In this document: piece after piece, positions 2,380-6,341 of the stretch
How the letters are laid out: the number at the start of each line of letters is the position of its first letter
Position numbering within the stretch: position 1 is the stretch's first letter
NCBI GenBank assembly: GCA_964385185.1
Contig: CAYLOA010000003.1
Location: 56,736-76,735, forward strand
Direction of reading: 5' to 3'
Origin: an uncultured Methanosarcinales archaeon
GTDB lineage: Archaea; Nanobdellota; Nanobdellia; Woesearchaeales; CALCXY01
DNA: 20,000 bases
Translations under genes and position numbers: made by a program
The notes under the pieces: generated by a model
What the model was told of the DNA's origin: nothing
Seen by the model: the letters and a program-made list of their open reading frames with translations, nothing else
Database searches by the model: none

Positions 2380-3972
2380 ATGTTTAGAAAGCAATTTTTG
2401 GTGTTGTTTCTTGCATTACTTTTATCTCTAAGTGTTCATGCTATTACTGTTTCTGATATTCCTACTAAGGCCAACCTTGGTGATTTGGTTTCTATTGACG
2501 TTACAGTTGAGCAACCTGAAGATATGCAAGCATTGCTTAGTGTTATTTTGCAATGTCCTAATGTAAATTTGCCATTTTATACTAATTTTATTGAGCTCAG
2601 TGCAAACCAATCAAAAACTTCTACTGTTCCAGGGATAACGTTTATTTCTATTATGGAAGGACAATGTTCATTTCTTGGGCAGTTAAAACGGCTAGATAAT
2701 AGTGTTATTGAGGAACGAGCTACCAATAGTATGGAAGTGACGAGTACTTTACCCTTTACTGCCAGTTTTGAAGAGAAAACGTATGATCCTGGAGATAACA
2801 TTAAAATTACAGGAGATTTTAGTGTGACTTACGATAATTTTGATTATGCAGAATTACAATTAAAGCTAGGTGGAACTACTGCCAAAAATATTACAAAGAC
2901 TAGTTTTTCTAAGACACTACGTGTACCAGATGATGCACCAGCAGGTAGTCAGACTGCGAAATTGTCCGTTAGTGATGCGTTTGGTAACAAAGGTGTAGTT
3001 TCTCTACCTATTCAAATAACCCAGATTCCTTCGGCTGTTTTGGTGGATTTGAATAGATACTTGTATACTCCAAATGAGACTATGCAGGCTGTTGTAAATT
3101 ATGTTGATCAAGCAAATACCACAATTCCTGATCCTATTAGTGTAAAGTTGGAAGGTCCTAAACAATTGCTGTTACGAGATGTTTTGGACGAGAAAACAGT
3201 TACAGATAACGTGTATACGTATAGATTTGGTTTACATGCAGAGCCTGGAGATTATCGTCTAACTACAACAGCTGGAGAGATGACCACGGTAACTTATTTT
3301 AATGTGAGCGTCGTTAAGGATTTATCAGTTACTTTTGATGATTCTCGAGTTATTATTTTTAATTCAGGGAATGTTAAGTATGATGATGATATTACCATAA
3401 ATATTCCTAATTCAGAGGAAGCTGTTACGAATGCTATATCATTGACACCTGGAATTCAGACGGTTATTGACCTTTCTAAGTATGCCGTTGAATCGGGCGA
3501 ACAACCGGTTAAAGTTACTTTTAGTAGAGGTGGTAGTAGTCGGAGAAGCTTAGGTGCAGGTAGTGCCACAGAAGAACAACAGAGTGAGCAAGGGGTTGGT
3601 ACTACTGCAGGATCTGCTTCTGAGTCTAATTCCCAAGAATCTACCGTGTCAGATACTGTTCATATTGAGAAGAAAGGAATATTTAGAGCCACGGGTGCTG
3701 CTGTTGCAGGTGTAGTAACAAGTCCATCTCTTTGGGCATTTTTTCTTGTAGTGGGTGCGATTGTAGGTTCATTTATTTTTATTAAGAAAAAGGGATTTGG
3801 AGGGGGTGAACCTTCTGAAGATATTGATCTTAGCAAGGTGCAACAAGCCATGGATGATCATGAGATTACTCCTGAAGCTCGAACTGAAATTAAACGGGTT
3901 GCTGAACCTGTCATGCAGGCTGCTCCTGAACCTAAAGATGAAGATATTGTTGTAGAATTGGATGATGATTAG
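2380..3972 (+). CDS. Secreted multi-Ig-like-domain membrane protein with C-terminal TM and acidic cytoplasmic tail
   Basis: Signal peptide (MFRKQFLVLFLALLLSLSVHA), beta-rich domains (YDPGDNIKITG, YTPNETM), Ser/Gly/Glu linker, TM LWAFFLVVGAIVGSFIFI then KKK, acidic tail. Confidence 0.85.
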   Translation: MFRKQFLVLFLALLLSLSVHAITVSDIPTKANLGDLVSIDVTVEQPEDMQALLSVILQCPNVNLPFYTNFIELSANQSKTSTVPGITFISIMEGQCSFLGQLKRLDNSVIEERATNSMEVTSTLPFTASFEEKTYDPGDNIKITGDFSVTYDNFDYAELQLKLGGTTAKNITKTSFSKTLRVPDDAPAGSQTAKLSVSDAFGNKGVVSLPIQITQIPSAVLVDLNRYLYTPNETMQAVVNYVDQANTTIPDPISVKLEGPKQLLLRDVLDEKTVTDNVYTYRFGLHAEPGDYRLTTTAGEMTTVTYFNVSVVKDLSVTFDDSRVIIFNSGNVKYDDDITINIPNSEEAVTNAISLTPGIQTVIDLSKYAVESGEQPVKVTFSRGGSSRRSLGAGSATEEQQSEQGVGTTAGSASESNSQESTVSDTVHIEKKGIFRATGAAVAGVVTSPSLWAFFLVVGAIVGSFIFIKKKGFGGGEPSEDIDLSKVQQAMDDHEITPEARTEIKRVAEPVMQAAPEPKDEDIVVELDDD

Positions 3973-4004: not shown

Positions 4005-5267
4005 TTAAGTCCCTTCTTGCCAACTGTTCAAGTATTTCTCCTGTTCAGGTGTTAAGGTATCAATTTTAATTCCCATGGACTCTAATTGTAGCCTGGAGAT
4101 TTCTTGATCCTTTTCTGGATCTAATTGATATACTTTGTTTGAGAGTTTTCCTTTATTTTGTGCTAGGAATTCACAAGCAAAGGCTTGGTTACAAAACGAC
4201 ATAGCCATGATGGTAGATGGATGTCCTTCTGCAGCTGCAAGATTGATTAATCTTGCTTCTCCTAATACAAAGACTTTTTTGTTGCCCAGCATGTATTCAT
4301 CCATATACTCTCTGATTTTTCTATGGTTTGTAGCTAGTTTTCCTAATTCTGCTACATTGATTTCAGAATCGAAGTGACCAGAGTTAGCTACCATTGCACC
4401 ATCTTTCATTGTTTTCATATGGTGAATATCGATCACGTGCTTGTTACCTGTTACCGTCACAAAGATATCTCCTAGTGGGGCTGCTTCTGCCATAGGCATA
4501 ACTCTAAACCCATCCATGGCAGCTTGTAGTGCTCTGAATGGGTTTACTTCAGTCACTATGACGTTTGCATCTTGACCTTGTGCTCTTCTTGCTAGGCCTT
4601 TTCCACATTCTCCATATCCTACAACAACAAATGTTTTACCTGCAATGATTACATTGGTTGCTCTTAGGATTCCGTCGATTGTGGACTGTCCTGTTCCTTT
4701 CAGATTATCCATTAGATGTTTTGTGTCTGCATCATTTACAGCTACCATAGGATATTTGAGTGCGTTGTCCTTGACCATGGAATTTAATCGAATAATTCCA
4801 GTAGTGGTTTCTTCAGCCCCTCCAATAATTTCTGGAAGAAGTTCTGGATGTTTAGTGTGAATTTCCGTTACTAAATCACAACCATCATCAATGGTGATGT
4901 GTGGTTTAAACTTGATGACGTTTGTTAGATATCGGTAGTAATCTTCGTTTGATTCTCCTTTGTATGCCCAGATATTTACACCTTCTTCTGCTAATGCTGC
5001 TGCAACATCATCTTGAGTTGAGAGAGGATTACAACCCGTGATTGCCACTTCTGCTCCTCCAGCCCTTAATGTTCGTACTAGAATTCCCGTTTCTTTAGTT
5101 ACGTGGAGAGCTAGACCCACCTTTAGTCCTTTTAGTGGTTGTTCCGTTTTGAATCTTTCTCTTACTTGTAAGAGGGCTCCCATTTGCATTTCTGCCCATT
5201 CAAGGTTCTTTTTACCTTGCTCTGCTAATTTCATATCCTTTACTTCATAATTTTCTCCTGTATCCAT
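4005..5267 (-). CDS. ahcY: S-adenosyl-L-homocysteine hydrolase (adenosylhomocysteinase)
   Basis: Signature motifs GCNPLSTQDDVAAAL, IDDGCDL, EETTTG, GYGECGKG (NAD binding), NSGHFD, NLAAAEGHP. The likely start is ATG 5267 with SD AAGGTGA upstream; the track's GTG at 5276 lies inside the SD. Confidence 0.97.
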   Translation of the reverse strand: MDTGENYEVKDMKLAEQGKKNLEWAEMQMGALLQVRERFKTEQPLKGLKVGLALHVTKETGILVRTLRAGGAEVAITGCNPLSTQDDVAAALAEEGVNIWAYKGESNEDYYRYLTNVIKFKPHITIDDGCDLVTEIHTKHPELLPEIIGGAEETTTGIIRLNSMVKDNALKYPMVAVNDADTKHLMDNLKGTGQSTIDGILRATNVIIAGKTFVVVGYGECGKGLARRAQGQDANVIVTEVNPFRALQAAMDGFRVMPMAEAAPLGDIFVTVTGNKHVIDIHHMKTMKDGAMVANSGHFDSEINVAELGKLATNHRKIREYMDEYMLGNKKVFVLGEARLINLAAAEGHPSTIMAMSFCNQAFACEFLAQNKGKLSNKVYQLDPEKDQEISRLQLESMGIKIDTLTPEQEKYLNSWQEGT

Positions 5268-5311
5268 ATAGATCACCTTGTTAGTTTATGAGATAGGGAA
5301 GTAGTGGATGA

Positions 5312-5329
5312 TTTATATATATTTGTCTC
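5312..5329 (-). promoter_or_regulatory. BRE/TATA promoter of ahcY
   Basis: The minus strand reads GAGACAAA-TATATATAAA, about 45 nt upstream of ATG 5267. Confidence 0.6.
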
Positions 5330-5340
5330 TATTATGTTTA

Positions 5341-5375
5341 ATTTGTCCAAGAATAGTGGATATTTATGGACAAAT
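5341..5375. promoter_or_regulatory. Inverted-repeat operator candidate between divergent promoters
   Basis: ATTTGTCCA (5341-5349) N17 TGGACAAAT (5367-5375) is a perfect 9-bp inverted repeat. Related half-sites occur at 5321, 5357 and 5398. Confidence 0.55.
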
Positions 5376-5417
5376 ATAGTAAGTTTTATATAGTAGTTGG
5401 ACAGTATACAGTATATT

Positions 5418-5500
5418 AGGAGTTTGGTGAGGCTCTCTGGAGATTTTCAACCCCAACGTTGATACCCTTCCTTCTACCGGGGAGTCTTACTATTTTTTTT
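5418..5500 (+). ncRNA. Candidate structured small RNA or leader RNA upstream of the Lrp gene
   Basis: TATA box TTTTATATA at 5384-5392; 16-bp helix 5425-5440/5477-5492 with 5 G-U pairs; inner hairpin TCAAC/GTTGA; T8 at 5493-5500. Confidence 0.6.
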
Positions 5501-5536
5501 ATAATAAAAAGAGTTAGATTGAGTGCTAAAGAACTG

Positions 5537-5959
5537 ATGGAATTACAAGAGAAAGATCGGAAAATTATTGATTTGCTTAGAGAGGATGCTCGAGCTACTA
5601 TTCGAGACATTGCTAAACGAACTTCTTTACGACCGAGTACGGTCCATCAACGAATGCAGAAGATGGATAAAGAAGGAGTGATTGAGAAATATACTGTCAA
5701 GTTGAATAATGATAAAGTGGGTGAGAATTTTATTGTGTTTATTATGGTTAAGAGTTCTAAAGATATTGAGAAAAGTGCTTTGAAGGATGATCGGATAAGA
5801 GAAGTGTTTGGAGTTACCGGTGGTTTTGATTTAATGATTAAATGTAAGTTTAAAGATATCGTTGACTTTAATGATTTTATTATTGCTTTCCGTAAGAAGG
5901 ATGGTATTGAAGCTACTGAAACAGTAGTGAGTACGGTTACAATTAAAGAAGAGCTTTGA
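5537..5959 (+). CDS. Lrp/AsnC family transcriptional regulator
   Basis: N-terminal HTH (KDRKIIDLLREDARATIRDIAKRTSLRPSTVHQRMQKM..EGVI) and C-terminal RAM domain (VTGGFDL). The start is most likely ATG 5537; the track's upstream extension runs through the RNA hairpin. Confidence 0.93.
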   Translation: MELQEKDRKIIDLLREDARATIRDIAKRTSLRPSTVHQRMQKMDKEGVIEKYTVKLNNDKVGENFIVFIMVKSSKDIEKSALKDDRIREVFGVTGGFDLMIKCKFKDIVDFNDFIIAFRKKDGIEATETVVSTVTIKEEL

Positions 5960-6000: not shown

Positions 6001-6341
6001 ATGGATTCAATAATGCCTGAAGAATATATACCTTGGGACTTATTCATTCTTTATCAGACATCGATTTGGAAACTTGAAGATTTAATTATTAATGGTACAA
6101 CAGATGAAAATTTTCGAGATCATAACATGGCTGGCAGAGATTTACTGATAACTCTTGGAACTATTAAATTAAGACAATGGGACAAGCCAACTTTTTTTTG
6201 GAGGCAAGAGAGTTATTACGTAGAAGTTATGAAGCACTGGACGCTTATTTTGATGAAACTTCTAATATGGAATGTCTTGCTTATCGAGGATTTCAACAGG
6301 AAAGAAGAGACGATTTAGAGAATTTTATCACAGCAGATTAA
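6001..6341 (+). pseudogene. Hypothetical gene with an apparent frameshift at a T8 tract
   Basis: TATA TTTTATAAA at 5971-5979 suits a leaderless ATG at 6001. After T8 (6192-6199) the -1 frame reads LEARELLRRSYEALDAYFDETSNMECLAYRGFQQERRDDLENFITAD* and ends at 6341, 2 nt from the convergent gene. Confidence 0.5.

Follow-up and report, generated by a model that had tools for sequence, protein, structure and literature searches.

The DNA between ahcY and lrp in this uncultured archaeon encodes a structured RNA that is a member of an undescribed RNA family of Woesearchaeota-type DPANN archaea. The family is new and well supported, being conserved in structure and sequence, with a covarying closing helix, and lying on the lrp strand in 75 of 110 loci of Lrp/AsnC orthologs. 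As to function, we tentatively prefer, at slightly less than an even chance, the interpretation that the RNA is a cis-acting control module of the lrp transcript, in which two conserved loop boxes would bind a trans-acting factor and the closing helix P1 would be the effector. Such a module would probably help to set the amount of Lrp regulator made. On the same interpretation, the RNA in the window (the whole 20,000-nt stretch of DNA that was analyzed) would make up the first ~83 nt (~5415-5497) of the lrp transcription unit, with both transcript ends inferred. Its parts and the neighboring genes are listed in Table 1.

Table 1. Parts of the RNA element (5418-5500) and flanking features; positions are those of the window
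Feature	Position	Strand	Basis or remark
ahcY, S-adenosyl-L-homocysteine hydrolase	4005-5276	-	Pfam AdoHcyase 1.3e-64, AdoHcyase_NAD 2.2e-51
Inverted repeat TTTGTCC - 19 nt - GGACAAA	5342-5348/5368-5374	.	Invariant between G000 (this genome) and G001
TATA box TTTTATATA	5384-5392	+	Sequence; promoter of the RNA
Conserved GTTGGACA after TATA box	5396-5403	+	Promoter part; same in relatives without the RNA
P0 5' strand AGGAG	5418-5422	+	Sequence; pairing partner 5468-5472
P1 5' strand UGGUGAGGCUCUCUGG	5425-5440	+	Sequence, fold, covariation
P2 hairpin UCAAC/GUUGA, 5 bp, loop CCCAAC	5447-5451/5458-5462	+	Sequence, fold
C box ACCCCAA in P2 loop	5450-5456	+	Sequence
Unpaired pyrimidine tract CCCUUCCU	5465-5472	+	Sequence
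P0 3' strand UUCCU	5468-5472	+	Overlaps U box
U box UUCU	5472-5475	+	Sequence
P1 3' strand CCGGGGAGUCUUACUA, purine-rich (GGGGAG)	5477-5492	+	Sequence, fold, covariation
U8 run, likely archaeal terminator	5493-5500	+	Sequence
TATA-like TTTATAAT merging with U8	5498-5505	+	Sequence; 39 nt 5' of lrp ATG
lrp, Lrp/AsnC-family regulator	5537-5959	+	Pfam HTH_24 1.6e-14, HTH_AsnC-type 9.5e-13, AsnC_trans_reg 3.6e-10

The plus strand of the element folds with a minimum free energy of -30 kcal/mol (z -3.80), which none of 200 shuffled sequences equaled, while the minus strand reaches -12.7 kcal/mol (z +1.22), equaled by 180 of 200 shuffles. Since the plus-strand fold beats chance and the minus-strand fold does not, the signal is that of an RNA of the lrp strand. 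P1 is an uninterrupted helix of 16 bp that includes five G-U pairs (5426/5491, 5429/5488, 5432/5485, 5436/5481 and 5438/5479). The first-pass annotation, made from the letters alone, had described the TATA box, this helix with its G-U pairs, the inner hairpin with its CCCAAC loop, the unpaired CCCUUCCU tract and the terminal U8; all of these are present in the sequence, and its view that the helix works as plus-strand RNA agrees with the strand-specific z scores. It had also offered two roles for the AGGAG at the 5' end. Pairing with UUCCU is possible in the sequence, and the site coincides with a covarying helix of the relatives (P0, below). The other role, as a Shine-Dalgarno sequence for an 11-codon GTG frame at 5427-5462, did not hold up: the frame exists, but a same-genus relative has CUGUAAGG there, and the leader-peptide idea was dropped because the frame is not conserved.

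A mobile repeat of the MITE type or a chance palindrome was considered as an alternative. The element is single-copy in its 1.3-Mb, 85-contig genome, with one match by BLAST and one by covariance model, and it has neither terminal repeats nor target duplications. Its position relative to lrp is fixed in syntenic loci across many families, and both the G-U pairs and the strand-specific scores point to RNA rather than DNA. These observations make a mobile or accidental origin extremely improbable.

Sequence similarity alone reaches only a short distance. BLASTN of the 86-nt segment against 61 related genomes found the same-genus genome only (E 0.005), the other matches being chance matches of 14-19 nt. 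In that genome the RNA occupies the equivalent site between ahcY and lrp and contains an extra inner hairpin, and its helix is kept by two-sided changes (U-A to C-G, G-U to U-A and G-C to A-U). A covariance model built from these two sequences (R1) matched in four of 151 genomes and added two genera of another family, also with the order ahcY-RNA-lrp; it was superseded by a 13-sequence model (R2). When the DNA around the orthologous Lrp gene was compared in 30 genomes of the order, 14 showed the ahcY-RNA-lrp architecture, and R2 at E<=0.1 had matches within the order in 37 of the 151 genomes searched. A further 80 loci came from metagenomes, which were scanned with an alignment of 12 Lrp orthologs. 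R2 made 72 matches over 98 loci, a number that includes weaker reverse-strand echoes of the same helices.

The family appears to be confined to one order, in that strong R2 matches in a phylum-wide draw of 151 genomes all fell within it. Weak matches outside the order or in coding sequence (L093, L095-L097, L099, L186-L190) looked like noise on inspection and were dismissed. An exact core pattern was found in eight stretches of genome contigs, five of them already known archaeal loci and three of them bacterial chance matches.

Across the family P1 is 9-17 bp long, and covariation in it is abundant. For 43 distinct 5'-type sequences the covariation score of P1 was 0.536 against 0.257 in shuffled alignments, none of 500 of which scored as high, and slid registers scored 0.09-0.18. 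Standard pairs filled 86.1% of P1 cells in the same sequences compared with 70.8% in shuffles, and two-sided changes were seen in 15 of 17 pairs; this alignment was fitted to the model, which favors structure somewhat. Among 17 distinct sequences of a second form of the module, found 3' of lrp, compensatory changes occur in 9 of 11 P1 pairs. A search for homologs with a test for covariation, named beforehand as a check of the first-pass proposal of a new RNA class, thus gave both relatives and a covarying helix.

While the helix drifts, the loop boxes do not. The C box lies inside the loop, 2-12 nt past the 5' strand of P1, and is often displayed as (A)CCCCCAA in the loop of the small P2 hairpin. 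It reads CCCCCAA in 38 of the 43 distinct 5'-type sequences, the lineage of the window having CCCCAA, and is invariant in all 17 distinct 3'-type sequences. All 43 distinct sequences have the U box UUCU 7-36 nt 3' of the C box, mostly just before the 3' strand of P1; it is also kept in the 3' form, and variable hairpins are found between the two boxes. The two forms differ in the polarity of P1. Members of the 5' form always have the G-rich, Shine-Dalgarno-like strand on the 3' side (consensus YCAG-GGAG-YC), whereas in the 3' form the P1 sequence is different and the G-rich strand is the 5' one, which suggests that only a module in front of the gene is under an additional constraint related to translation. 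The minimal 3' form is a hairpin loop of ~25-30 nt without a G-rich partner for the C box. Two members are permuted (L069 1416-1483 and L092, G123:C3:69117-69188, minus strand): the U box with a hairpin precedes the C box inside P1.

In many members the nucleotides just 5' of P1 can pair with the segment between the two boxes. These P0 duplexes have a mean energy of -6.97 kcal/mol when cognate strands are combined and -4.72 kcal/mol when non-cognate strands are, and none of 5000 permutations was as low. Examples are CGCCA/UGGCG, AACGCCG/CGGCGUU, UUGCCAAA/UUUGGCAA and UAAACGC/GCGUUUA, with GUAUC/GAUAC in the same-genus relative. P0 crosses P1 and would therefore form either a pseudoknot or an alternative fold. 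In the window it is doubtful that P0 and P1 form together, given the 4 nt between UUCCU and the 3' strand of P1.

No known RNA family accounts for the element. Rfam 15 matched nothing in the 20-kb window at gathering scores, and a relaxed search of 5280-5560 at E<=10 returned five unrelated matches with E>5. Covariance models of SAH and SAM-SAH riboswitches in Rfam were not matched, and ARAGORN found no tRNA or tmRNA genes in the window. C/D box sRNAs have boxes C (RUGAUGA) and D (CUGA) near their ends and a K-turn; no RUGAUGA occurs in the element, no Rfam snoRNA model matched, and the CUGA of relatives forms Watson-Crick pairs with UCAG in P1, the window having CUGG in its place. H/ACA sRNAs carry an ACA box 3' of a hairpin with a pseudouridylation pocket and a K-turn; here the 3' flank is ACUAUUUU in the window, with ACA in G001 only, and Rfam again gave no match. 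The first-pass annotation had recognized no known pattern and proposed a new class of RNA, and the Rfam search, which had been named beforehand, leads to the same view.

The RNA shares its promoter region with ahcY, which is divergent from the RNA/lrp unit; a divergent ahcY lies 5' of lrp in 84 of 91 related loci with at least 700 nt of upstream sequence. The TTTGTCC/GGACAAA inverted repeat recurs 5' of the TATA box in most related loci inspected. It is likely the operator of a shared ahcY/lrp control region, and Lrp itself is the likely protein to bind it, which would mean autoregulation together with control of ahcY. A third copy of GGACA is located just past the TATA box, and most related ahcY/lrp intergenic regions keep it.

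Where relatives lack the RNA, the same TATA box and GTTGGACA stand ~25-38 nt 5' of the lrp ATG. In this genome TTTATA peaks at exactly -30 from start codons (68 of 1001 upstream regions), so most of its mRNAs look leaderless, and a leader of ~100 nt would be exceptional. The same -30 spacing would place the start of the RNA near 5415. ATTCT is enriched ~13 nt before ATG in this genome and TTCT immediately precedes the ATG in 23 of 1001 upstream regions, which may reflect a promoter-proximal or initiator element specific to the lineage. The U box was considered as a DNA promoter element of this kind and rejected, since it is not ~13 nt from any start and no TATA box precedes it. Between the RNA and the lrp start, AGAGTTAGA (5510-5518) and TGCTAA (5523-5528) are kept in the same-genus genome, unlike the T-run and the TATA-like box nearby, which are absent there.

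Linkage of the module to lrp is seen in three arrangements. Fifty-three of the 110 loci have it 5' of lrp (50 recognized by R2, two by eye and one cut by a contig end), and in two others it is the leader of an MFS-lrp operon, standing ahead of the MFS transporter gene that precedes lrp. In 20 loci the module lies 10-134 nt past the lrp stop codon and is followed by a U-run (six found by R2 and 14 by a scan for C box plus helix; the genome of one 3' locus, L055, is flagged as unpublished). No module was detected in the other 35 loci, some of which have short flanks and some a different leader. A quick Lrp tree of low resolution requires at least 3-4 changes for the 3' placement and at least four for the 5' placement, so the module appears to have been moved or replaced repeatedly while being kept in the lrp unit. 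Behind the single lrp gene of L143 there are two tandem 3'-type modules. Five loci (L118, L154, L163, L179 and also L062) have a different structured lrp leader without a C box. Its 5' strand is G-rich (GGGAAAAGGGGG...), its 3' strand is C/U-rich to match, and it includes a conserved UUGUUGGCGCAACAAUUGG; in one Lrp clade it seems to take the place of the module.

Among 40 non-redundant 5' members, the first start codon of an open reading frame with 125 aa or more lies a median of 19.5 nt past the model match, and 27 of the 40 have it within 25 nt; the start was called as the first in frame, so that some calls may lie upstream of the true start. One 5' match directly abuts the start codon. With the start codon this close to P1, the 5' form is physically a 5' UTR. 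A run of at least five T follows P1 in 15 of the 40 non-redundant 5'-type members, and a U-run follows it in all 17 distinct 3'-type copies. From a reading of the aligned sequences, many 5' members have a GGAG tract 10-24 nt from the start codon. This spacing is long for a Shine-Dalgarno site and counts against the cis-acting interpretation.

The cis-acting interpretation could combine these arrangements as follows. The boxes stay fixed while stems and inserts drift, across the order and in three contexts, which suggests that they are read by a factor in trans, and the copies 3' of lrp and 3' of ftsZ (described below) lead us to prefer a protein over a metabolite as that factor. The boxes would then be its docking site, and P1 would work as a terminator where a U-run follows and as a block to ribosome loading where it lies near a start codon. 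In the window, most transcripts may stop at P1 and U8 without reaching lrp, whose expression would then depend on read-through or on the TATA-like box, which is 39 nt from the ATG compared with the usual 30; the Lrp-type operator would in that case directly control a short RNA. The first-pass annotation had likewise taken the T-tract for a terminator merging into a second TATA-like box for lrp, which is a reasonable reading of U8 running into TTTATAAT. For most relatives, in which P1 ends 2-25 nt before the start codon, the predicted output is a block to ribosome loading, and in the 3' copies P1 with its U-run may serve as the lrp terminator. The very high stability of the fold as a whole makes switching of P1 hard to picture without help. 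The small share of 5'-type members with a T-run and the 35 loci without a module count against cis control, and so do copies with the look of separate small RNA genes (below). In favor of it are, besides structure and boxes, the linkage to lrp with its repeated relocation, the closeness of the 5' form to the start codon, the exceptional leader, the promoter shared with relatives that lack the RNA, and the strand polarity of P1.

The termination signals could also be all there is to the element. An ordinary hairpin for termination or stability, without any sensing role and with the boxes as a by-product of shared ancestry, fits the U-runs of the 3'-type copies and of the 15 5'-type members, and the extreme 5' end of the transcript is paired in P0, as expected of a protective helix. 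Archaeal termination, however, needs a U-tract alone. Moreover, a drifting helix around loop boxes that are invariant across the order and the three contexts is the reverse of the pattern expected from a hairpin with a structural role alone, and the genome has only two or three such hairpins. We consider this explanation very unlikely. Archaeal U-tract terminators reportedly act with aCPSF1/FttA and share with the lrp module the U-run at the 3' end; they differ in needing no hairpin and in having no conserved loop boxes, and the lrp-type element occurs at no more than two or three loci in each genome.

A metabolite riboswitch is another possibility, with the loop boxes forming the pocket and P1 being the terminator or the start-masking helix. 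In the family, covarying helices with variable inserts do surround conserved unpaired nucleotides, a general trait of riboswitches, and one core would serve two outputs, a U-run or a P1 beside the start codon, with P0 across P1 as a pseudoknot or alternative fold. Divergent ahcY is the conserved neighbor, a pfkB-family kinase is nearby, and natural guesses for a ligand would be SAH, SAM, homocysteine or adenosine from the methionine cycle. The position of the modules fits less well, as 20 of 75 lie past the lrp stop codon with a U-run and a related hairpin lies 3' of ftsZ, neither of which is a classical riboswitch position. No Rfam riboswitch matched, the SAH and SAM classes included, and in the minimal 3' form, little more than a short loop, the C box has no G-rich strand to pair with. 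The RNA and ahcY are on opposite strands, with the RNA pointing away from the gene, which is not the placement of SAH riboswitches. The link to SAH or adenosine metabolism in the first-pass annotation is not supported, its sole tie being the neighboring ahcY on the other strand, and we regard a metabolite riboswitch as decidedly unlikely.

A simpler hairpin that shares the C box, with the loop CCACCCCCAA, UUCU before it and a U-run after it, was detected 3' of ftsZ in six genomes: G135 and G024 (both in tandem), G028, G010, G067 and the genome studied here (G000:C24:1316-1359). FtsZ was confirmed by Pfam in this genome and recognized by eye in the other five. The RNA downstream of ftsZ here (G000:C24:~1270-1370, with L105 1316-1359 as the hairpin) has a hairpin CACC-CCUUnAGUCUUUGU-GGUG followed by AAUUCU, then a 10-bp hairpin with loop CCACCCCCAAC, then U8; it is kept in the five other genomes and is tandem in L091 and L101. 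Searches of the ftsZ-downstream loci against Rfam gave unrelated low-score matches only. The hairpin of this genome sits past the T-runs of ftsZ itself, and L092, which adjoins neither lrp nor ftsZ, has its own TATA box ~60 nt upstream. Together with the tandem copies (L091, L101 and L143), these features make some copies look like independent small RNA genes.

Such copies bring up a further explanation, a trans-acting sRNA that would be derived from the UTR, freed by termination at the U-run or by processing, and would pair with targets through the C box (complement UUGGGGGU) and the U box. Being transcribed together with lrp, it could be the RNA arm of the Lrp regulon. A stable closing helix with a U-run is the usual shape of small RNAs, the invariant unpaired box of 7-8 nt resembles a seed, and in the window a promoter precedes the RNA while U8 and the TATA-like box part it from lrp. 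Most relatives, on the other hand, have no room for a separate lrp promoter, and in 5'-type members with a start codon within 25 nt (27 of 40) and no run of at least five T (25 of 40) no separate transcript could arise without processing. UUGGGGG shows no enrichment in the genome, whose two strands together have 49 sites against ~48 expected from base composition, and we found no conserved target, the few UUGGGGG sites at gene starts being those of a TBP-like gene and two small ORFs. A trans-acting sRNA thus seems rather unlikely. Two other pairing partners were tried and rejected. The anticodon loop of the tRNA-Pro(UGG) of the genome, UUUGGGA, does not fit the C box, and mimicry of the anti-Shine-Dalgarno sequence is speculation only, the 3' end of the 16S rRNA being canonical GGAUCACCUCCU and the C box differing from it at U. 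Small RNAs of Firmicutes with C-rich loops, such as RsaE/RoxS, are likewise short, end in a terminator and have unpaired C-runs in their loops, and they pair with G-rich ribosome-binding sites. There is no homology, most copies here are part of lrp mRNA, and with most mRNAs of this genome apparently leaderless, there would be few ribosome-binding sites for targeting of this kind.

A broader form of the cis-acting interpretation would take in ftsZ as well. The two-box hairpin may be the RNA half of an archaeal post-transcriptional switch on lrp and ftsZ that works from either end of the message; we place this somewhat on the unlikely side. Its reader could possibly be Lrp itself or a KH-domain protein, and metabolite sensing from the 3' UTR is a less likely variant.

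The nearest analogy, a functional one only, is the animal iron-responsive element, which also presents a conserved loop motif on a variable stem in either a 5' or a 3' UTR, where the protein IRP reads it and thereby controls translation or stability. The two are unrelated in sequence and phylogeny, and the reader protein is hypothetical here. The lrp module further differs in its two boxes, its much longer stem, its usual U-run and its attachment to the same gene in either position. Bacterial riboswitch or attenuator leaders, such as the SAH riboswitch RF01057 upstream of ahcY, are similar in their conserved unpaired nucleotides within covarying helices, in the pairing of hairpin and U-run or masking of a start region as outputs, and in the ahcY neighborhood. 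Differences from the SAH riboswitch are that its model is not matched, that the lrp RNA runs opposite to ahcY and precedes a regulator gene, that a quarter of the copies are 3', and that the host is an archaeon. By these analogies, the element would function most like a protein-binding hairpin of the IRE type or a riboswitch/attenuator leader, being a member of neither.

To our knowledge, very few cis-regulatory RNAs have been described in archaea, and RNA elements that occur at either end of a gene are rare among those we know from prokaryotes. We found no report combining Woesearchaeota and riboswitches in the full-text literature, a source that does not extend to subscription journals; judged by title or abstract, nothing relevant turned up among the papers listed for DPANN and riboswitches, nor among those listed for sRNA or ncRNA in DPANN or Woesearchaeota. 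A cis-regulatory RNA in DPANN archaea was likewise not found reported in the full-text literature. The covariation is enough to justify bench work on the motif, which sits on a regulator of the feast/famine type whose partner in nearly all relatives is the methyl-cycle gene ahcY. Since the mRNAs of its hosts look mostly leaderless, the motif offers a tangible way into post-transcriptional control in archaea that are uncultured and host-dependent. If the two-ended switch were true, it would give archaea their first described IRE-like regulon, or their first 3'-UTR riboswitch, and it would control lrp and, through the sister hairpin, the cell-division gene ftsZ in DPANN archaea with leaderless mRNAs.

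Several observations were made on the neighboring genes. A 105-aa ORF directly 3' of lrp (6001-6318, plus strand) had no Pfam match, and a 530-aa ORF (2380-3972, plus strand) had a sub-threshold match to MG2 only. In G009, ahcY is present as two overlapping ORFs in different frames, of 189 aa and at least 304 aa (L033 1625-2194 and 2175-3086), which suggests a frameshift or an assembly error.
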